64,000 bases of DNA from the NCBI GenBank assembly GCA_022710775.1, contig JAKLGH010000002.1, positions 12,707 through 76,706 on the forward strand. The letters are read 5' to 3'. Positions 1,189-59,068 of this stretch are shown one piece after another (positions within the stretch are counted from its first letter, which is position 1; each line of letters starts with the position of its first letter). Below the pieces are notes generated by a model. It had not been told where the DNA came from. It searched no databases and saw only the letters and a program-made list of their open reading frames with translations. Made by a program: the position numbers and the translations under genes. Origin of the DNA: Patescibacteria group bacterium. Lineage in GTDB: Bacteria > Patescibacteriota > Minisyncoccia > Minisyncoccales > UBA5738.

Positions 1189-1215
1189 GACAAAAAGACG
1201 GAAATCCGATAAGTT
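1187..1215 (+). promoter_or_regulatory. Sigma70-like promoter (TTGACA-17 nt-TAAGTT)
   Basis: TTGACA at 1187-1192 overlaps the terminator T-run. TAAGTT lies at 1210-1215. Confidence 0.4.
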
Positions 1216-1501
1216 CTTTTTAACGGTTCATTAAAAATCATTATTTATATAGGGGTAGGAGGTGAAAGCATCAGAAAAAACCAGCTTCTTGTTTGGATGT
1301 TCGGAGGCCTTTGGATGGAGCGCAGGATGCGGGAGCTTGTTATTGGGACAGCTTTTTAGCTTCCCGCGGCCGGCTAAGCGCCAACCTATGTTGTTGCGCT
1401 ACCCAGCCTGGAATGTCCTCGCAGCCAACACTTATACGGGGTGTCTGATGAGATCTGCAATCGTCAAGCAAAAACTTGGCGGGCTATGGATGGCTTTCTA
1501 G

Positions 1502-1527
1502 AGCCTAAGCCTAAGCCTAAGCCTAAG
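1502..1527. repeat. Tandem hexamer repeat (AGCCTA)x4
   Basis: agcctaagcctaagcctaagcctaag read directly. It starts right after the stop of the doubtful ORF 1262..1501. Confidence 0.9.
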
Positions 1528-1543
1528 AAAGGTTGTGAGCTAT

Positions 1544-1572
1544 ATCCAGCCGTATCCCTTAAGGAGGTGATC
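1544..1572 (+). other. Segment with extended complementarity to the universal 16S rRNA 3' terminus
   Basis: ATCCAGCCG (1544-1552) and TTAAGGAGGTGATC (1559-1572) are complements of 16S CGGCUGGAU and GAUCACCUCCUUAA, in swapped order relative to the rRNA. Confidence 0.6.
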
Positions 1573-1850
1573 TGATCAAGGGAGCCTACGCCTTTCTGCG
1601 CCGCGCCGTTATGACGGGGATAGCGACAAAGCAATGCGTTATAACGAGCGGTTTGACCGGTAGTCCGCGTTCTTCAGCCAATGCGAGAAAGACGAGGATA
1701 AGCTCGGTTCTGCGGCCAAGGCTGTTATATGCCGGAACCGGTCCGCCCGGTTTTGAAAATTTTTGCTTTTTGGCCTAAGCGGCCGCCGGCCGCCCACGGC
1801 TTGTCCAGAAGATGGAATAATATCCGAGAGCGAAAAGGAGGTGAAAAACT

Positions 1851-3046: not shown

Positions 3047-4207
3047 ATGGAGAACAAGAAACAACTGGGCCAGTTTTTTACCACAAATTCCGACCAGATA
3101 CTGGTTGGCCTAAATAAATACGTAAGAGGGAAGAAAGTGGCTGATCCGTTTGCCGGAAATAGTGATTTGTTAAAATGGGCAAAAAAAGAAGGCGCGAAGA
3201 GTGTCGAAGGTTTTGATATTGATAAAAAATTCGTCAACAATAAGGATGTTTTTTTTAACGACAGCCTTCTTTTCCCCAAAAAATATGAATTTGTGTTAAC
3301 CAATCCTCCATATTTAAATATAAATAAGGCTGATAAAACCACTAAAGAAAAATATTTTGCTAACGGCTTCGAAGATCTATATCAACTGGCTTTGATTTCA
3401 ATTATGGATAGCGATGAGGGGATTGTAATCGTTCCAATAAATTTTTTATCTGCTGAAAATTCAAAAAAAACCAGAAATGCCTTTTTTTCAAAGTTTGAAA
3501 TAGTGGAAATGAATTACTATAAAAACCAAGTATTTTCAGATACAACATACAATGTAATCGTTTTTTATTATAAAAAGAAAAAAGACGCATTTGATTGTTG
3601 CTTTAACATTAAAGCACATTTATATCCTGACAAAAAAAACATAAATATTAAATTGGAAAAAAAATACGGGTGGATGATTGGTGGTAGCTTTATTAATTGC
3701 ATTAAAAATCAAAAAAACGAATTAAAAATTTATCGTCTCCAAGAAAAAGACTTAATAAAAGGAAATCAAGAAATCAAAATGGCTTATAACCATATAAAAG
3801 AACAAAAAATTTATTCAGTAACCGATAAAAACATGGAGCTTGTTAGGGCAAACATAATTTTACTTAAAGCGATTGATAGTGGAAGCGAAAAAGGGAAAAT
3901 TGCCCTCGAGGACATTAGGGACTATAAATTAGATGGTTTAGTGAGTAAGCCAACTTCCAGACACATGGTGCAATTGATTTTTGAAAAGCAGATAACCATA
4001 AATGAGCAAAGAGAGATTATTAAAGTGTTCAACGATGAATTGGAAAATCTAAGAAAGAAATACAACTCTTTATTTTTAACAAATTATCGAGATAATGATC
4101 GAAAAAGAATTTCTTTTAACTTTACGTACAAATTAATCAATTATTTGTACGTGAACAAGCTTCACAATATATCGCAAGAAACGCAGGATGAGAAATTATT
4201 AGCTTAA
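3047..4207 (+). CDS. Type II N6-adenine DNA methyltransferase (gamma-class motif order)
   Basis: LGQFFTT (motif X), ADPFAGNSDL (motif I, AdoMet binding) and LTNPPYL (motif IV, NPPY). The region is visibly AT-rich compared with its flanks. Confidence 0.85.
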   Translation: MENKKQLGQFFTTNSDQILVGLNKYVRGKKVADPFAGNSDLLKWAKKEGAKSVEGFDIDKKFVNNKDVFFNDSLLFPKKYEFVLTNPPYLNINKADKTTKEKYFANGFEDLYQLALISIMDSDEGIVIVPINFLSAENSKKTRNAFFSKFEIVEMNYYKNQVFSDTTYNVIVFYYKKKKDAFDCCFNIKAHLYPDKKNINIKLEKKYGWMIGGSFINCIKNQKNELKIYRLQEKDLIKGNQEIKMAYNHIKEQKIYSVTDKNMELVRANIILLKAIDSGSEKGKIALEDIRDYKLDGLVSKPTSRHMVQLIFEKQITINEQREIIKVFNDELENLRKKYNSLFLTNYRDNDRKRISFNFTYKLINYLYVNKLHNISQETQDEKLLA

Positions 4208-4218
4208 TAGAATATATT

Positions 4219-5133
4219 ATGGATAATATTAAATTATTAGATTATTCAATATTAAACAAAGAGCAGGCTTTAGATCCCGCTTATATGTTTATTGAAAAGG
4301 ATAGAGATTTGCCTAAATACGTTGAAAAAACTAAAAAAATTAAAAATATTTTAATTGCTATTAAGGAGGTTTCCAATAAGAAAAGCTCGACCGAGGTTAT
4401 AGCTACTCTATTTGCAGATTTAAAAGAAAATTTGAAGGACTTTTCCCAATTCTCTGAGTTTAGTTGTTTCATTAACGCCTGCGATTCGAGCTTAAACTAT
4501 GCAACAATGAACGAGGAGCTATTAAAGAAAATTACCGCTTACTATTTGCAAAAAAGAGATTTAAATGAATTTGTACCTTCCGAATGGATACAAGCATTGA
4601 TAGACAAGACATCGTCTCGAAAAAAAGGGCAAGTTGGTGAAGTTAAGTTAATAAATATTCTAAAAAAAAGCGGATATTGTTATACGGAGAATTATTTAGA
4701 ATTTATTAAAGCTAAAAAATCTGTTGCTTGTTTTCGAAATGATTTTACTCTTAAGAATATAAAAAAGAATCTAAAAATTTCCATCGGTAAGGATACTCAA
4801 AGCAAAAAATTGGATTTATGCATAAAGAAGGGTAAAGAGATTTATTTCTTAGAAGCGAAACATGTAAACAATGAGGGCGGGGAACAAAACAAACAAGTAT
4901 TGGAACTGATTAAGATAATTCAAGAAAAAAATGCCAATAATCACTATCATTACGTAAGTTTTCTCGACGGATTATATTTCGATTTACTTTTTAAAAGTAT
5001 TATTTCAGTGCCAAAGAAAAAAAGTGGTGAAAATAAGTTACTAAAACAACAAAAAGACATTCGCAAAGCTTTAAAAAACAACAGGAACAACTATTTTGTT
5101 AATACTGCGGGTTTTAAAAAGCTTTTTGGCTGA
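4219..5133 (+). CDS. Putative cognate type II restriction endonuclease (PD-(D/E)xK-like)
   Basis: It lies 11 nt downstream of the methyltransferase and shares its AT-rich composition. A candidate catalytic motif is KLDLCIKKGKEIYFLEAKH (D...E-x-K). No other recognisable family. Confidence 0.55.
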   Translation: MDNIKLLDYSILNKEQALDPAYMFIEKDRDLPKYVEKTKKIKNILIAIKEVSNKKSSTEVIATLFADLKENLKDFSQFSEFSCFINACDSSLNYATMNEELLKKITAYYLQKRDLNEFVPSEWIQALIDKTSSRKKGQVGEVKLINILKKSGYCYTENYLEFIKAKKSVACFRNDFTLKNIKKNLKISIGKDTQSKKLDLCIKKGKEIYFLEAKHVNNEGGEQNKQVLELIKIIQEKNANNHYHYVSFLDGLYFDLLFKSIISVPKKKSGENKLLKQQKDIRKALKNNRNNYFVNTAGFKKLFG

Positions 5134-5280
5134 AGTCGTTAAAACGTTTCAAGTATTTTTCACAATTTGCTTAAAAGCCAGCCTCTTTCTTGCGTTCGGC
5201 ATGCTTGACGGAGGAATGGATTAAGGTATGATATAGCCGTTTTCGGAAATCAAGGCACGTTAAAAAATGTTGGAGGAAAT

Positions 5281-8576: not shown

Positions 8577-8744
8577 AATTTAAAAAACGTTTAAAAGATG
8601 CCGGGTTTTATTTGGGCCGGTTGTTTTATGCGCTTCGGTTTTAATTCATGAATTTTTGGCTTGACTGTTTTGGCCAAGGCGGCCGCGATTTATGGCGTAA
8701 AACGGATTATAACTGAAGGAAAAAGCCATGGATGTCATTGAAAA

Positions 8745-8909
8745 GGAGCTAAGGCGTGGTTAAAATAACACAAAGGGAGTATTCGGAAGCGCTAAGAATG
8801 GTTAAGATCACAACCCAATCTACCCGCTTTTTTGCGGGAAGAAAGCCTACGGATTCATTTTTTTCCATGACTTGCCCGTGGTTTACAACATAAAGGTTAC
8901 AACATAATA
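8745..8909 (-). ncRNA. Copy C (inverted, 3' half decayed) of the multi-copy structured RNA-like element
   Basis: The reverse complement reads ttattatgttgtaaaccacgggcaagtcatggaaaaaaatgaatccgtaggctttcttcccgcaaaaaagcggg. This aligns with copy A, tttgtagaccacgggtaagccctgggaacaaaatgaaacttacggtttccttcccgcaaaaaagcggg. Confidence 0.4.
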
Positions 8910-8915
8910 AAAAAA

Positions 8916-10100
8916 ATGAGAAAATCTTACATTACGTCTGAATCAGTTACCGAGGGTCATCCGGACAAGATCGCTGACCAGATTGCCGATGCCATTCTTG
9001 ATGAAGTTATCCGCCAGGATAAGTACGGGCGCGTTGCCTGTGAGGTGATGGTTGGCAACAGCTATGCGATTATCGGCGGCGAGATATCGAGTTCAGCGTG
9101 GATCGATTTTAACAACTTGACGAGAAAAGTTATCCGCGATATTGGATACGACCAGGAAACCCACGGTTTTTGCTGCAAGAATGTGGCGATTATGAACGCG
9201 GTAAGCCGGCAGTCGCCCGATATAGCCAGGGGGATCAGGAAGGCCGGGTCGAGAAAACAAGGGGCGGGCGACCAGGGATTTTCGACCGGATACGCCGTTA
9301 CCGAAACTCCGGAATTGATGCCATTGACGATATTAATGGCTCATAAATTGGCTTTCCGCCTTGCCGAAGCCAGAAAAAAGAAGATCATTCCTTATTTGCG
9401 GCCGGACGGTAAAAGCCAGCTGACCTTGGAATACCACGACGGAATACCCGCAAGGCTGGAAAACGTAGTAATTGCGGCTCAACACGATCCAAATACACCG
9501 GTCCAAAAAATAAAAAAAGACATAATCGAAAAAGTAATCAAACCGGTTTGCGGAAAATATTTGGATCATAATACCCGATTTTTCGTGAACAATACGGGCC
9601 GGTTTGTGATTGGCGGCCCCGCCTCCGATACCGGCGCGACCGGACGGAAGATCATTGTTGATTCTTACGGAGGAACTGTGCCGGTCGGGGGCGGCAGTTT
9701 TTCGGGAAAAGATCCGACGAAAGTTGACAGGTCGGGAGCCTATATGGCTCGTTATATAGCAAAAAATATTGTAGCGTCGGGTTTGGCCGACGAGTGTTTT
9801 GTGCGCCTTGCCTATGTTATCGGCGGAACGAAGCCGACCGAATTAAGCATTGAAACTTTTGGAACGGCGAAGATCGACGAGGAAAGGATCGAAAGAATAA
9901 TTCCGAAGGTTTTCGATCTGTCGCCGGGGGGAATTATCAAACAATTGAATCTTTTGAGGCCGATTTACCGGAAAACCAGCTGTTATGGCCATTTTGGCCA
10001 CGAAGAGGCGGAATTTACCTGGGAAAGAAAAGACAAAGCCAAAGAGATCTTGAAAGCCGTTGAGCAAAAAACTGCCAAGGGAAAAACGGCAAAAATGTGA
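8916..10100 (+). CDS. metK: S-adenosylmethionine synthetase
   Basis: [30 protein letters not shown] and a [20 protein letters not shown] motif ([16 protein letters not shown]). Confidence 0.97.
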
Positions 10101-11100: not shown

Positions 11101-11242
11101 ACAATAGATTATTTGCCCAAAGCGCTCTTCGATGACGCTTCCTCTGGCCGTCCGCTTTGTTACGCTTTGCGCCGGGAGAAACAGCATTCGGAAAATAAAT
11201 TGATAATTTAATAATTTCCGGTCGTTATCAGCGAAGAAACAT

Positions 11243-12992: not shown

Positions 12993-13020
12993 TTGATATT
13001 TTTTTAAAAAATATTATTAT
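12993..13020 (+). promoter_or_regulatory. Candidate promoter of RNA element copy A (TTGATA-16-TATTAT)
   Basis: TTGATA at 12993-12998 and TATTAT at 13015-13020. The ATTATTTTGT block is conserved in copy B, and as TATTATGTTGT in copy C. Confidence 0.4.
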
Positions 13021-13212
13021 TTTGTAGACCACGGGTAAGCCCTGGGAACAAAATGAAACTTACGGTTTCCTTCCCGCAAAAAAGCGGGAAGAAAGGAGGA
13101 GGACTTAGGTACTCCGCCCCGCATCCTGCGGGGGAGGAAGCATCCTCTGGTTGACAGGCGTGGTTTTATACCACGCCGGGCGAAACTCAAAAGGAAGAAT
13201 ACATAATTGATA
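13021..13212 (+). ncRNA. Copy A of the multi-copy structured RNA-like element (unclassified)
   Basis: A 28-nt block (gaccacgggtaagccctgggaacaaaat) is identical to copy B. Shared hairpins are GGAGG-aagcat-CCTCT and GCGTGG-ttttata-CCACGC, followed by CGGGCGAA. The shared 3' end is ggaagaatacataattgat. Confidence 0.5.
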
Positions 13213-13247: not shown

Positions 13248-13550
13248 ATGGATAAAGCAGAGGTAATTGAGGTAAAGAAAGTCGTTTTGGAGCCCGGCGA
13301 GTACGAAGTTATAAAGATCCTTGTTAAGGAATTCGCGTCCGGAGGCGAAGATTCCGGCCTTTTGCGAGAAGAAATAAAAGAACAGCTGAAAGATCTGATC
13401 CCGCTGGTTGCTCTCGCCGATTTAGCCTTAATTGAGAAGGAAATCGGTTTGCCTCCCGGCACGCTCGCGATAATCAGCGCAATGGCGGTCCAAAAGGCTT
13501 TAGAAGAAGCTAGCGGAAGCATTACCGTTTTTACGGTAAATAAAGAATAA
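13248..13550 (+). CDS. Hypothetical acidic protein (100 aa)
   Basis: An ORF with the SD-like GGAGAG 7 nt upstream. No recognisable motif. Confidence 0.55.
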   Translation: MDKAEVIEVKKVVLEPGEYEVIKILVKEFASGGEDSGLLREEIKEQLKDLIPLVALADLALIEKEIGLPPGTLAIISAMAVQKALEEASGSITVFTVNKE

Positions 13551-15526: not shown

Positions 15527-15666
15527 CAATTTTCAATTTCTAATTTTCAATTTACAATAAATGTTTCAAATTCCAATGCTTCAAGCAGGATACTCTTATG
15601 TGTTTTGTTTGATTCATTGGTTAATCGAGAATTCATTGAAAATTGGAAATTTTTTATTGAAAATTA
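15527..15666 (+). repeat. Long AT-rich inverted repeat in the ybaB leader (2+2 copies of AATTTTCAAT/ATTGAAAATT)
   Basis: AATTTTCAATT at 15528 and 15542; ATTGAAAATT at 15635 and 15656. The right arm ends 7 nt before the ATG at 15673. Confidence 0.6.
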
Positions 15667-21913: not shown

Positions 21914-23020
21914 GTGCTATCAAAAAATATGGAAGAAGAAAATTTTATCGAAGAGCTGGATAAAAAGAGGAGGATTTTCTATTACGGCGGAATCGCGGCG
22001 GTGGTTTTTTCCTTTTTGATCTTGTATATTTTTGTTATTGCCGATATGCTCGGCGGCAGATCTGGCTTGGATGAAGAGAAGCCCGGAAACGGCCAAGTTT
22101 CAGAGGTGGGCGAGGGGCAGGAGGACGGAATATATCACGTGGAAGTAAAAACAAAAGATGATTGCCTGGATATGGATGATAAAAATGAGAGCCGAAAATG
22201 TCTTGATAATATTGCTCTGGACAGCGCTATAGACGATAACCTTTTTTCAAAGTGTAACGATATCGGAAATGAAAGCCTTCGAAACGACTGTATGCACCAG
22301 GTTGCCCATAACCAGGAAAGCATAGCCCTCTGCTTAAAAATTTCCGATGAAGCGATCAAAAAGACATGCGTTAGCGATGTGGCGATATCGTTGAAGGATC
22401 CGAGCGTTTGCAGCGCCGCTTTCCGTGAATCTTTCGAATTGAAAGAATGCCGCGATGTCGCGACAGCCTTTACGATAGCTTACAGCGGAAAAAAAGACGA
22501 TATCGGAGAATGTGCCGCAATCGAGACCAAAGAATATTCCAATTTGTGTTTTTTGAATTCTTACGTTTCCAAATATGGCGGCGATTGCGAAAAGATTCCC
22601 TCGGCTTATCGGCAGTATTGTATTGATTATAAGGCGATGGAAGCGGCCGAAAATCCGGAAGATTGCGATGTTGTTAAAGATTCCAACTATAAGGAATATT
22701 GTTTGAAGGTGGCGGAGGTGGGAGCTATCGAGGCGCGTTACTTTGATACCGACGGCGACGGAATTACGGATGGTAACGAGCTGTTTATGAAAACCGATCC
22801 CAAGAAAGTTGATACCGACGGCGACGGGATTAATGACGGCGCCGAATGGATTATTCTTGGAATCGATCCCGGTAATCCGGATACCGACGGCGACGGTTTA
22901 AACGATTCCCAGGAAATGCAGGATTACCGTACAAATCCCAAGAATCCGGATACCGACGGCGACGGAAGAAACGACGGTTTAGAGGTAAAAATGAAGAGGA
23001 ACCCATTGACCAAAGACTGA
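21914..23020 (+). CDS. Membrane-anchored protein with Cys-containing repeats and four thrombospondin-type-3-like Ca-binding repeats
   Basis: An N-terminal TM segment (YYGGIAAVVFSFLILYIFVI). The C-terminus has 4x DTDGDG(I/L/R)(T/N)D motifs. The start is uncertain (GTG at 21914 or ATG at 21929). Confidence 0.65.
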   Translation: MLSKNMEEENFIEELDKKRRIFYYGGIAAVVFSFLILYIFVIADMLGGRSGLDEEKPGNGQVSEVGEGQEDGIYHVEVKTKDDCLDMDDKNESRKCLDNIALDSAIDDNLFSKCNDIGNESLRNDCMHQVAHNQESIALCLKISDEAIKKTCVSDVAISLKDPSVCSAAFRESFELKECRDVATAFTIAYSGKKDDIGECAAIETKEYSNLCFLNSYVSKYGGDCEKIPSAYRQYCIDYKAMEAAENPEDCDVVKDSNYKEYCLKVAEVGAIEARYFDTDGDGITDGNELFMKTDPKKVDTDGDGINDGAEWIILGIDPGNPDTDGDGLNDSQEMQDYRTNPKNPDTDGDGRNDGLEVKMKRNPLTKD

Positions 23021-24356: not shown

Positions 24357-24447
24357 GCTGTCCGAAATTTTCTTTGGCCAAAGTTATCGGTTTTATTATT
24401 TTTTAACCTAAGAATTTTTCGAAAACATAAGAAAACCCGAATTTTTT

Positions 24448-24618
24448 CCGGAATGCGTAAAGGCGGTAAGCGGGCATCCTGCTTTCATTTTCTGGGCAAA
24501 GAAGCATCCTCGACAGTGTTAAGGCATTGTTCCCGGCTAAGAGTGATTGCGCGTTTTATGCCGCGCCGGGCGGTTTTCCGGGTCAAAGGTAAAAACATTT
24601 AGAAGATAAGAAATTGAT
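24448..24618 (+). ncRNA. Copy D (divergent) of the multi-copy structured RNA-like element, directly upstream of mgtC
   Basis: It shares ..ggtaagcggg.., ctgggcaaa and gaagcatcctc. It also shares the hairpin GCGCG-ttttatgc-CGCGC followed by CGGGCGG, and the 3' end agaagataagaaattgat. Confidence 0.35.
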
Positions 24619-24627
24619 GCAAAATTC

Positions 24628-36211: not shown

Positions 36212-36418
36212 TTGGTAAAGAAAAAAACACAGCCAAATAAAGAGGAATTGCGTTTGAACAAGCGTAAAAAATCTACCGTTTGCAAAAAGTGCGGGTTTAA
36301 ATTTCCTTGCGGAGGCATATTTAAATGCTTTTGCGGAATAACGCACCAATGCACTTTAACTGACGGGGTTGTTATGGCGATTCCTTTGGCTATCGAGGAG
36401 GGATTGGATAAAAACTGA
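36212..36418 (+). CDS. Candidate small Lys/Cys-rich protein (68 aa), hypothetical
   Basis: A TTG start with GGAGAG 8 nt upstream (the same SD as 13248). The Cys cluster is CKKCGFKFPCGGIFKCFCGITHQC. It lies in the iorA-iorB gap, immediately 5' of RNA element copy B. Confidence 0.3.
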   Translation: MVKKKTQPNKEELRLNKRKKSTVCKKCGFKFPCGGIFKCFCGITHQCTLTDGVVMAIPLAIEEGLDKN

Positions 36419-36545
36419 TTATTTTGTGACCACGGGTAAGCCCTGGGAACAAAATAAGGAGGAGTCCAGAGGAAGCATCCTCTGGCCGCCTGCGTGGCTT
36501 CATACCACGCCGGGCGAATCTCCAATGGAAGAATACTTAATTGAT
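36417..36545 (+). ncRNA. Copy B of the multi-copy structured RNA-like element (unclassified)
   Basis: The same 28-nt 5' block as copy A. Hairpins are CCAGAGG-aagcat-CCTCTGG (a perfect 7 bp) and GCGTGG-cttcata-CCACGC, followed by CGGGCGAA. The 3' end is ggaagaatacttaattgat. Confidence 0.5.
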
Positions 36546-36584
36546 TTCAAACCATTGCCTAAGCACAATTTTTTAACACCATTT

Positions 36585-36612
36585 TTTGGTGTTTTCTCTT
36601 GTTTGCTCCAAG
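36585..36612 (+). terminator. Rho-independent terminator downstream of RNA element copy B
   Basis: aacacca-tttttt-ggtgtt followed by a T-rich tract. Confidence 0.55.
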
Positions 36613-36721
36613 GCGTGGTTGAAAGTTAAGCGAATATTTAATACGATAATACTATTGAAAGAAGTTTTTTATCCGCGGCCATTTGCGGAAACGCCGTTTA
36701 AAGCGATAAGCGTATAACCAT

Positions 36722-56538: not shown

Positions 56539-57102
56539 ATGAAAAATCAAAGCGGAATTTCGACGTTGGCAGTAGTTATTATCATAGTATTGATCATTTT
56601 AACTGCGGTTGTGGCACTTTTTGTTTTCGGCAATTTAAACAAGGCCGATGATAAAACAGGCGGCGAATTGCGGATAAAAGATGCCAAAAATTCCGCGACC
56701 GAATGGAATGTTTACCGGAACGACCAATTCGGTTTTGAGTTCAAGTTTCCCGGAAACGCGACGGTTAACGATGCTTACCTCGACAACAAGTATGCTTTCG
56801 CGGTTGGAGTCACTTCGAAAAATTGGAATGACGGCGTTGTGGCTGTAATTAACCACGGGAATGTCGGAACCATGACGTTTTCAGAATTTGTGGCTAAAGA
56901 CCTCCAGGACCAGGGAGATTCCGGCGCGTCGGTAAAAGAAGTTAAATTCAACGGTTATGATAGCGTTTTCGTGAGTGGAAAGAATAAATCAGGCTATTAT
57001 TTGTTGCGCAAACTCGATGTTTACGAAGTGTCTAAAACTTCCCCGGTTACGGCCGACGAGGCTGACAAGATATTTGCCTCGTTTAAATTCATCGAACAGT
57101 AA
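56539..57102 (+). CDS. Secreted protein, paralog 2; class III (prepilin-like) signal-like N-terminus
   Basis: MKNQSG/ISTLAVVIIIVLIILTAVV N-terminus, the EWNVYRNDQFGFEFKFP box, and the C-terminal IFASFKFIEQ. Confidence 0.7.
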   Translation: MKNQSGISTLAVVIIIVLIILTAVVALFVFGNLNKADDKTGGELRIKDAKNSATEWNVYRNDQFGFEFKFPGNATVNDAYLDNKYAFAVGVTSKNWNDGVVAVINHGNVGTMTFSEFVAKDLQDQGDSGASVKEVKFNGYDSVFVSGKNKSGYYLLRKLDVYEVSKTSPVTADEADKIFASFKFIEQ

Positions 57103-57148
57103 AGATTGAATGCCTCGCGCAAGCGGGGCATTTTAATTAAACATTAAT

Positions 57149-57787
57149 ATGAATTTCAAATTAAATAATCAGGAAGGCTTGTCGCCAGCTTTTGTTTTAA
57201 TTACGGCAGCGGCTATGATTTCTTTGACCGGTTTCACGATCAAATACGTAAATGACAGCCAGAAAGAAATAGACGATGAAATATCTTATCAGGAAGACCT
57301 GATCGCAAAAAGCAATGTGGATATCATCAAGGAAAGCGCGGCCAAAGAAAAGAGTGGCGAGACGGATAAAACCGCGGATTGGCAAACGTACCGGAACGAG
57401 GAGTACGGGTTTGAGCTTAAGTATCCGAAAGAGTGGGCAATAGCTAAAAACAGCGAGGAAATTGTGTCGATTGGCGATCAAGCTTCGAATTCCGGATTTC
57501 ACATCGAGGCTTTACCGAACAAGGGAAAATTACCGTTTGACCAATGGTATAAGCAAGAAGTGTCTAGCGGAAATAACACCGGATACGAATCTAAAAAAGT
57601 AATTATCAATGGGAGCGAAGCAGAAGTATTTGATACGGTTTTTCACGCGATTAACACGCATAGCGTTGAAGGCCTGGAAGCATATTTAGCCGGCCAGGAT
57701 GATATAATCCACATAGTTGCCGGCGGCCATGGAACAAAAACCATCTTCGACCAAATGCTTTCCACATTCAAGTTGATCGAACAATAA
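57149..57787 (+). CDS. Secreted protein, paralog 3; class III (prepilin-like) signal-like N-terminus
   Basis: MNFKLNNQEG/LSPAFVLITAAAMISLTG N-terminus, the DWQTYRNEEYGFELKYP box, and the C-terminal MLSTFKLIEQ. Confidence 0.7.
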   Translation: MNFKLNNQEGLSPAFVLITAAAMISLTGFTIKYVNDSQKEIDDEISYQEDLIAKSNVDIIKESAAKEKSGETDKTADWQTYRNEEYGFELKYPKEWAIAKNSEEIVSIGDQASNSGFHIEALPNKGKLPFDQWYKQEVSSGNNTGYESKKVIINGSEAEVFDTVFHAINTHSVEGLEAYLAGQDDIIHIVAGGHGTKTIFDQMLSTFKLIEQ

Positions 57788-57829
57788 GATTAGCAAACCC
57801 TCGCTTAAGGTGGGGGTTTTATCAATAAT

Positions 57830-59068
57830 ATGTTCCAACTAACTAACCAAAAGGGAGTTTCGCCGGTTTTTGCCCTGTTGACGATCGTGGCCGCGCTTTC
57901 GGTGACCGGTTTTACGATCAAATACGTAGATGACGGCCAGAGGGAGGTAGATGAAGAAATAGCCCGCCAGGAAGACCTGACCGCAAAAAGCAATGTGGAC
58001 ATCATCAGGAAGGACGCGGCTAGGGAGAAGCAGGGAGGAGAAGGAGAAATCGCTGATTGGCTGACCTATCGCAACGAGGAATATGGATTTGAGATAAAGT
58101 ATCCCGTTGGATTTATCTTCGAAGAAGCAAAATATCCGGCCCAATTTAATCAAACAATAACAAGAAAAGAAATCAGTTTTTATTCCCCGGGAGAATTGAA
58201 AGGGGAGGAAAGGTCTGCGTTGGCTCTGATAATTGATAAAGAACCGACAACATATGCGTTTCATGGGACGTGGGCTGTTCTTCCGTATTCAAAAGCGGAC
58301 AGTATAAAAATGCTTCGATCGCAAGAAATCAATATAAACAATGCTCTTTTCAGCAAAGATTATTGGACGGAGGCAATTTCCGCTCATACGAAAAAAGACC
58401 AATATTATTACTCGCTTGTTTTAGGAATCGATAGCCAAGATAACAGGAATCAGAAAACAGAAATTTTTGGCCAGATTCTTTCCACCTTTAAATTTATTGA
58501 TCCGAGCGTTCAGGCAACAAGCTGGACGGATTGTTATTTTGATCCGGTTTCTAATTTTCCTGGTGATAAGCGCAGTTTATTATGCGCTAACGGCCAGGAT
58601 AAGAAGACGGTTATTATCGATGTAAATGATTGGTTGGGTTGGGACACAGAAAAATTTTTCCCTTTGAAGGTTGTATTTTATCCGAAAACCCAGGAAATTT
58701 TTTTCGTTAAATATTATATAGACAGTGATGTATCGCTTGGTTTTTTTGCCCTGAATACTGGTACTTTAGAAATTAGAGAGTTGCCTAACGCGGGGCGCAT
58801 ATACCAGAATTACAATAATTACTTTAGTATCATCTCTCCCGATCGTGGCAGAATCGCATCGATTGGCAATGCTGATATTTATCTATTGGATCTCGCGTCG
58901 GATGGAACACAAGTGATTATTACCGCAAAGCAGGGCGAAATATTCAATCCTGCTGGCGGACAGAAAAATTCCAAATGGTTTGACGATAAAACATTGCAAT
59001 ACGAGGTTTATCGGGAAGGAGGCATGGAAAACCCTCCACAAATCAGAAAGATTACGGTCAATTACTAG
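57830..59068 (+). CDS. Secreted protein, paralog 4 with an extra C-terminal domain; class III (prepilin-like) signal-like N-terminus
   Basis: MFQLTNQKG/VSPVFALLTIVAALSVTG N-terminus, the DWLTYRNEEYGFEIKYP box, and an internal ILSTFKFIDP followed by about 190 additional aa. Confidence 0.7.
   Translation: MFQLTNQKGVSPVFALLTIVAALSVTGFTIKYVDDGQREVDEEIARQEDLTAKSNVDIIRKDAAREKQGGEGEIADWLTYRNEEYGFEIKYPVGFIFEEAKYPAQFNQTITRKEISFYSPGELKGEERSALALIIDKEPTTYAFHGTWAVLPYSKADSIKMLRSQEININNALFSKDYWTEAISAHTKKDQYYYSLVLGIDSQDNRNQKTEIFGQILSTFKFIDPSVQATSWTDCYFDPVSNFPGDKRSLLCANGQDKKTVIIDVNDWLGWDTEKFFPLKVVFYPKTQEIFFVKYYIDSDVSLGFFALNTGTLEIRELPNAGRIYQNYNNYFSIISPDRGRIASIGNADIYLLDLASDGTQVIITAKQGEIFNPAGGQKNSKWFDDKTLQYEVYREGGMENPPQIRKITVNY

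Follow-up and report, generated by a model that had tools for sequence, protein, structure and literature searches.

The question raised by this locus is whether a strongly folding sequence that recurs between the genes of one genome is a conserved RNA gene or cis-regulator or a piece of DNA that moves; a sequence-only reading had taken it for an unclassified structured RNA-like element. The host is a Parcubacteria-like CPR bacterium, the best named homologues of its metK and mgtC genes being found in Nealsonbacteria and Minisyncoccales MAGs, and the sequence was studied in a 64-kb window (the whole stretch of DNA that was analysed) and in contigs of relatives. Our finding is that the copies were recently inserted between genes, here and in relatives, and thus have the behaviour of a small mobile element and not that of a conserved RNA gene. 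The repeat family is genuine and undescribed, and it is neither a conserved RNA gene or riboswitch nor a classical MITE.

Two copies define the element. Copy A is full-length (13016..13211, plus strand, 196 nt, with a small ambiguity at its ends) and copy B is a minimal form of 128 nt (36418..36545, plus strand). They have in common the 28-nt block GACCACGGGTAAGCCCTGGGAACAAAAT, which occurs twice in the window (starting at 13027 in A and 36428 in B; shuffles expect 0), GGAAGCATCCTCTGG, the hairpin GCGTGG-7nt-CCACGC, CGGGCGAA and the end GGAAGAATAC(A/T)TAATTGAT. Their 3′ halves show 89% identity over 54 nt, and A exceeds B by 68 nt, due to extra hairpins; on all of this the sequence-only reading was correct. 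In the minimum-free-energy fold, A begins with a long hairpin, P1 (13017..13056, plus strand), made of an outer stem UUAUUUUGU/ACAAAAUGA and an inner stem CCA(C)GGG/CCCUGG with the loop UAAG; the same P1 hairpin is found in B and in two copies from outside the window, E and G. Because ATTATTTTGT, upstream of the 28-nt block, pairs with ACAAAAT at the block's end, what had been described as a 5′ block is one long stem-loop, P1. There follow in A an optional middle module of four small hairpins (13055..13133, plus strand; stems GAAAC/GUUUC, CUUCCCGC/GCGGGAAG, GGAG..CUCC and CCCCGC/GCGGGG), which B does not have; the P3 hairpin GAGGA-AGCA-UCCUC (13134..13147, plus strand), of which the outer CCA arm is missing in A; the P4 hairpin GCGUGG-UUUUAUA-CCACGC (13158..13176, plus strand); and a purine- and A/U-rich 3′ tail with the last letters AAUUGAU (13177..13211, plus strand). 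B is composed of P1 (36419-36457), the linker GGAGGAGU (36458-36465), P3 (36466-36485), P4 (36487-36516) and the tail (36517-36545). The ends of the element are defined with an ambiguity of 2-5 nt in AT-rich DNA.

Where four copies had been counted, the window holds five (A, B, C, D and F), or about one structured repeat per 13 kb. Copy C, which a relaxed pattern also picks up on the minus strand, is indeed a 5′ fragment on the opposite strand (8818..8907, minus strand), containing P1, with two mismatches, and the first two middle hairpins; its left end is tandemly duplicated (UUAUGUUGUAACC / UUUAUGUUGUAAACC). Copy D, whose true limits are 24431..24625 (plus strand), is divergent or degenerate. 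The order of blocks attributed to it holds in the 3′ half only (GAAGCAUCCUC, GCGCG-loop-CGCGC, CGGGCGG and AAUUGAU); its 5′ block is absent, its left end is different, its right end carries an additional GCAAAAU and its fold is not significant (z about 0). Its nhmmer match has E=6.9e-22 with a model that includes D and E=0.25 with a model that does not. The fifth copy, F (11118..11214, plus strand), is a decayed 3′-half copy between an SPP-family peptidase gene and the next gene (nhmmer E=7e-7; covariance model R1, 15.8 bits, E=0.045).

Exact-pattern scans with the 5′ block through public collections of genome and metagenome contigs gave copy E, at the end of another contig, and otherwise only chance matches inside coding sequence; scans of viral contigs gave nothing or chance matches only. 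Public assemblies are broken inside A and inside B, and these breaks, like the contig ending inside E, are expected for a repeat. Reading the copies directly, we saw no conserved ORF. A small ORF from an AUG after P1 was considered and rejected, since the AUG is not conserved: B does not have it, and in C the reading frame stops after 3 codons. The sequence GTTAAGCGA, shared downstream of A and B, belongs to the host or is coincidental.

Profile and covariance-model searches of fetched loci of relatives revealed divergent members at other positions, G and H in L022 and J and K in L031, so that relatives do carry the further copies with compensatory changes that the sequence-only reading had called for. 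Intact members follow one order. It opens with P1, a long hairpin whose outer stem is rich in AT and whose inner stem is GC; the purine linker (G)GAGGAKU comes next, and then the P3 hairpin, with the consensus CCARAGGR/YCCUYUGG. P4, which is GC-rich and varies in sequence, is the following hairpin, and an A/U-rich tail (GAAWUACAU...GAAAAUA) closes the element. In A and G, extra hairpins stand between P1 and the linker. The 5′ and 3′ arms of P3 are CCAGAGGA and TCCTCTGG in B, CCAAAGGA and TCCTTTGG in G and H, CCAAAGGAG and CTCCTTTGG in J, and CCAAAGGG and CCCTTTGG in K, which means that two base-pair positions have been altered on both sides. P1 and P4 hairpins are present in every intact member, with stems that are unrelated among A/B, G, H, J and K. 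The divergent copies thus keep their architecture by compensatory changes and by hairpin replacement, the covariation statistics being weak with only about 12 members. Against shuffles, the folding z-scores are -5.5 for A, -3.4 for B and -4.9 for G, which bears out the claim that the element is genuine, repeated and strongly folding. A functional RNA, too, would be expected to keep its P3 sequence and its overall architecture in diverged copies.

The element matches no Rfam family, in line with the sequence-only reading. At gathering thresholds, Rfam 15 finds two tRNAs only in the window. The best permissive match, to Bacillaceae-1 (RF01690), reaches 22.5 bits against a cut-off of 35 and is limited to one optional hairpin of A, CCCCGC-AUCCU-GCGGGG, which B does not have; with its CAUCCU loop and the AAGGA before it this hairpin is like half of the Bacillaceae-1 motif, but a sub-threshold score confined to the middle module of A does not make the repeat a member. 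Clostridiales-2 scores 20.7 on J (cut-off 58.6), and a search of G and H gave no Rfam match. The literature searched yielded no account of such a repeat family in genomes of CPR/Patescibacteria.

The comparison that carries our argument is with syntenic contigs of relatives, obtained via metK, iorB and mgtC homologues: all copies that could be checked against a syntenic relative are lineage-specific insertions. L018 (about 91% nucleotide identity) has neither A nor C, and its A site is empty and reads ...AAAAAATATTAT|GTTGAGG..., with a TATTAT|GTTGAGG junction. The spacer from the Zincin gene to the gene for a 100-aa protein is 71 nt long in L018 and the window has 192 extra bases at exactly that point, BLAST against L018 placing the insertion at 13018-13209 with an AT ambiguity of 2 nt. 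The 90 nt of C correspond to one base in L018, and L019, which is more distantly related, is empty at the A site and at the C site. B is absent from L024 and L027 (about 80-83% nucleotide identity; IorB protein 87-89%), in which the 490-500-nt spacer around its site is conserved, including a Zn-ribbon ORF, a terminator and the iorB promoter; it is present in L023, a 97% strain, with 4 substitutions in 91 nt, a rate about that of the flanking DNA. D is absent from L030 (63-nt spacer) and L031 (36-nt spacer), one of them being the relative whose MgtC is 90% identical. The F site in L018 holds a remnant, F18, with a different interior, and the L019 site is without the element; F and F18 have kept different parts of one ancestral copy, and the old copies D, F and F18 have all decayed. 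A decayed copy may also be present at the site of F in L022 (11990-12120), where the 175-nt spacer after the SPP-family peptidase gene ends in the tail-like ..GAAACCGCGAAATATAGGAATTAAAATAATAAAT.

For the divergent members, the comparison of orthologous sites covered G, J and K, the site of H having no alignable orthologue: G is absent from the orthologous L018 site, and neither the window nor L030 has J or K. In total there have been at least seven independent insertions, in three lineages. They lie in AT-rich DNA right at the boundaries of genes, whether within a -10 box, shortly ahead of a start codon or just past a stop codon, and three of the sites seem to resemble the left-end motif of the element (ATTATGTTG, ATTTTGT and TTTTGT).

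The genes beside the copies are unrelated (a hypothetical gene, iorB, metK, mgtC and others), and the copies do not keep to a fixed place ahead of orthologous genes that share a functional class, as riboswitches and cis-regulatory leaders would. A lies between the Zincin_1 gene and the gene for the 100-aa hypothetical protein (13248-13550), in the -10 region of the promoter of the latter, and becomes the 5′ UTR of that gene; the promoter-like site, which stops 6 nt before the first G of A, is found in the L018 empty site too. B lies between iorA and iorB, annotated as indolepyruvate:ferredoxin oxidoreductase subunits, directly 3′ of the stop codon of the small Zn-ribbon ORF (36212-36418) and upstream of the conserved terminator of that ORF's transcript (36575-36593), which is kept in relatives without B. 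Since the promoter is there at the empty site and the terminator in genomes that have no B, the element brings neither signal. C is antisense, 8 nt upstream of the metK start codon, and only 2 nt separate the end of D from the mgtC start codon that follows (24628).

Several of these sites are worth describing for their host sequence. Between iorA and iorB, the Zn-ribbon ORF (..CKKCGFKFPCGGIFKCFCGITHQC..), the terminator-like hairpin and a promoter-like site at 36619-36647 are all kept in L024 and L027, so the two genes may be transcribed as separate units. Ahead of metK (8916), an 81-nt block (8736-8816, plus strand) is conserved with L018 9900-9990 and is preceded by a short upstream ORF with a conserved C-terminus (..IEKELRRG*); it has no Rfam match and could be a metK leader or regulatory element. 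Because L018 has this block and is without the element, the block is host sequence and not part of copy C, which is lodged between it and the metK start codon; the limits 8745-8909 once given for C thus shrink to 8818-8907. At mgtC, L030 has a TATAAT-like box 2 nt before the ATG (9990-10003) and no SD, which suggests a leaderless mgtC mRNA; as D is inserted exactly at the position of this box in the window, mgtC expression would now have to rely, to judge from the sequence, on the right end of D.

Other variable or repetitive sequences were seen in the window. A region of about 650 nt that is poor in ORFs (~1190-1850, plus strand) follows a promoter-like site of the TTGACA type, shows about 85-90% conservation in L018 (3282-3930) and ends at a strong SD plus ATG (1851); it has no Rfam match, might be either a large non-coding RNA or a leader of unusual length, and contains at about 1500-1527 a (GCCTAA)n microsatellite that is expanded versus L018. 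In place of a DpnII-like restriction endonuclease gene (4230-5188; ORF 4219-5133) L018 has about 50 nt, and for the neighbouring ORF (3047-4207) the L018 orthologue gives only a weak Eco57I Pfam match; the two genomes thus differ by the presence or absence of a gene, possibly within a restriction-modification locus. Three tandem paralogous genes (56539-59068; repeat families D3 and D9) are spaced at about 678 nt, ORF 21914-23020 has tandem 66-69-nt repeats (22731-22992) that encode DTDGDG (TSP3-type) motifs, and a 60-nt AT-rich imperfect inverted repeat, 70% complementary, lies in intergenic DNA upstream of a YbaB-like gene (15528-15665).

A family that is short, non-coding, multi-copy and polymorphic in presence between related genomes is what the copies amount to, and we think it probable that they are non-autonomous mobile elements of about 115-200 bp in the intergenic DNA of one Parcubacteria-like CPR lineage. 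Such an element would depend for its movement on an enzyme that acts in trans from a gene elsewhere in the genome and recognises folded, structure-defined ends and not an inverted-repeat sequence; candidates would be an HUH/Y1-type single-strand transposase or a recombinase. Among about 30 ORFs of the window, a Pfam scan found no transposase, integrase or reverse transcriptase, and no TnpA or RAYT is among them; neither an excision product nor an autonomous parent of the repeat was seen. Once inserted, the element would simply be co-transcribed as a portion of a UTR, and its stable hairpins, together with an SD-like AAGGA sequestered in P3, could incidentally alter how stable the mRNA is or how it is translated.

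Among described elements, bcr1 and the modular BOX come closest. The bcr1 repeats of the Bacillus cereus group are dispersed non-coding sequences of about 155 bp that do not keep their genomic positions from one close strain to another; they are transcribed, compensatory changes maintain their stable predicted RNA structure, and reviews place them in a class of mobile sequences of their own, apart from typical MITEs (PMC3184786, PMC6542083). The present family resembles them as a small dispersed repeat of non-conserved location with compensatory changes, but has no sequence similarity to them and lives in another host phylum; the modular P1-P3-P4 architecture is a feature of the present family, and 5-bp direct repeats (a TTTAT motif) flank bcr1, whereas the copies described here show no consistent flanking repeat. 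BOX elements of Streptococcus pneumoniae, which are intergenic, co-transcribed and non-autonomous, place variable internal hairpin modules between conserved end modules (PMC3184786). The likeness is in this modular composition with variable internal hairpins; the sequences are unrelated, and BOX mobilisation is attributed to a specific IS transposase whereas the present family has no such partner known.

A bolder version of mobility, which we hold to be unlikely, would make the family a new class of non-autonomous elements that travel as folded single strands (of DNA or RNA), with structure-defined ends like those of integron attC or IS200/IS605, and that carry a conserved SD-sequestering P3 into UTRs. 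As an analogy for the putative mechanism, the REP/RAYT and IS200/IS605 ends-only elements serve best. REP/BIME/REPIN with RAYT, and IS200/IS605 PATEs, are defined by hairpins, use folded single strands and have no inverted repeats or target duplications (PMC3733652, PMC6006769, PMC3201880, PMC7290912), and A and E carry, just 5′ of the inner P1 hairpin, a GTAG. However, REPs are 20-40 nt long with one stem sequence genome-wide, whereas the stems of the present family differ within a genome (J versus K), and the left- and right-end hairpins of IS608 are alike, whereas P1 and P4 are unlike. The two ends of our copies do not bear the similar hairpins that are a trait of PATEs and REP-RAYT systems: P1 is no more like the P4 of its own element than that of another, the matrices of shared words and of duplex energies not being diagonal-dominant, except for an 11-nt word in K.

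We considered specific targets and crossover sites as well. The A empty site ends in TTAT, and the G and C empty sites have no TTAT at the junction; in G and C the left-end TTAT/TTTAT is inside the inserted DNA, with no matching repeat 3′ of the right end. A fixed IS608-style TTAT target is disfavoured on this ground, as is a target role for the left-end motif ATTATTTTGTA, which in G and C is part of the inserted DNA. A dif/Xer-like core is a lead at most: the joined right and left ends of A and of G give ATAA-N6-TTAT, but no consistent crossover core could be derived and no recombinase was seen.

Improbable, in our judgement, is that the copies are paralogous structured non-coding RNA genes or cis-regulatory leaders (an SD/anti-SD sRNA or a riboswitch-like switch), kept by RNA-level selection and spread by duplication. 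The strong folding of A, B and G, the compensatory changes in P3, the hairpins kept at P1 and P4, and the promoter-like site just ahead of A's first G all speak for such RNAs, which in view of the Rfam result would be new. So does the mostly sense orientation of the copies to neighbouring genes (10 of 12), a bias compatible with RNA-level selection or with strand-biased single-strand transposition; GC skew is positive over the entire window. Yet orthologous loci do not retain the copies, which are insertions at unrelated, non-orthologous intergenic sites; A's promoter is already present at the empty site, B sits within the 3′ UTR of another gene, C and K are antisense, and D, F and F18 have decayed. 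The folds themselves are as good on the other strand: sense and antisense energies are -77.8 and -74.7 kcal/mol for A, -53.3 and -53.4 kcal/mol for B, and -86.4 and -88.4 kcal/mol for G, and G-U pairs number just 1-5 among the 39-65 pairs of these folds. With both strands folding equally well and so few G-U pairs, there is no strand-specific signature. The sequence-only reading had further proposed two exclusive folds, with ACCACG of the 5′ part pairing alternatively with CGTGGT of the P4 hairpin; this pairing shows no covariation, and P1-P4 complementarity is no better within elements than between them (the word in K excepted), so it is not supported.

Among mobile elements, a classical MITE is very unlikely; it would stem by deletion from an insertion sequence with a DDE transposase and would have terminal inverted repeats and a target-site duplication of fixed length. 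Classical MITEs such as Correia, ERIC and RUP are comparable in size, copy number, intergenic position, co-transcription and possible effects on mRNA (PMC3184786), and small, non-coding, multi-copy sequences with insertion polymorphism at AT-rich sites would fit the description, as might a weak ATTTTGTA / ATTATGTA likeness of A's two ends and the 2-nt AT at its junctions, which could be a TA/AT duplication. But the defining traits of those MITEs, terminal inverted repeats and target-site duplications, which the sequence-only reading too had named as the mark of a plain MITE, were both tested and not found. Comparing the left 35 nt with the reverse complement of the right 35 nt gave no terminal inverted repeats in A, B, G or D, with end-alignment scores of 8-12 that were matched by 19-97% of shuffles (p between 0.19 and 0.97). 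The ends are instead conserved as different sequences, ATTATTTTGTA on the left and GAATACATAATTGAT on the right. At the junctions, the overlap with the empty site is a 2-nt AT in A, at most TT in G and none in D, hence no consistent target duplication; this comparison of filled and empty sites rests on A, G and D, as B, J and K have no close empty site. The copies are thus mobile and yet no classical MITE.

Finally, an RNA-mediated (retro)mobile module, whose transcripts would be reverse-transcribed and integrated in the manner of SINEs, seems scarcely credible: structure-defined and not sequence-defined ends, the truncated copies C and F, and the lack of inverted repeats or target duplications would suit it, but the window has no reverse transcriptase, neither poly-A nor another 3′ priming signature is present, it is the 3′ and not the 5′ end that C has lost, and the folding shows no strand asymmetry.

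A more general lesson is that repeated, well-folding intergenic motifs need a synteny check before they are called a new RNA family; this repeat also causes assembly breaks in metagenome-assembled genomes. For the bacterium itself, insertion of such a repeat in promoters and UTRs could plausibly make regulation differ from strain to strain, and, were the class of folded single-strand elements considered above to be real, the family would amount to a transposable post-transcriptional control module in reduced CPR genomes. The mobilising enzyme, if found, could reveal a hairpin-recognising transposition system in this phylum.
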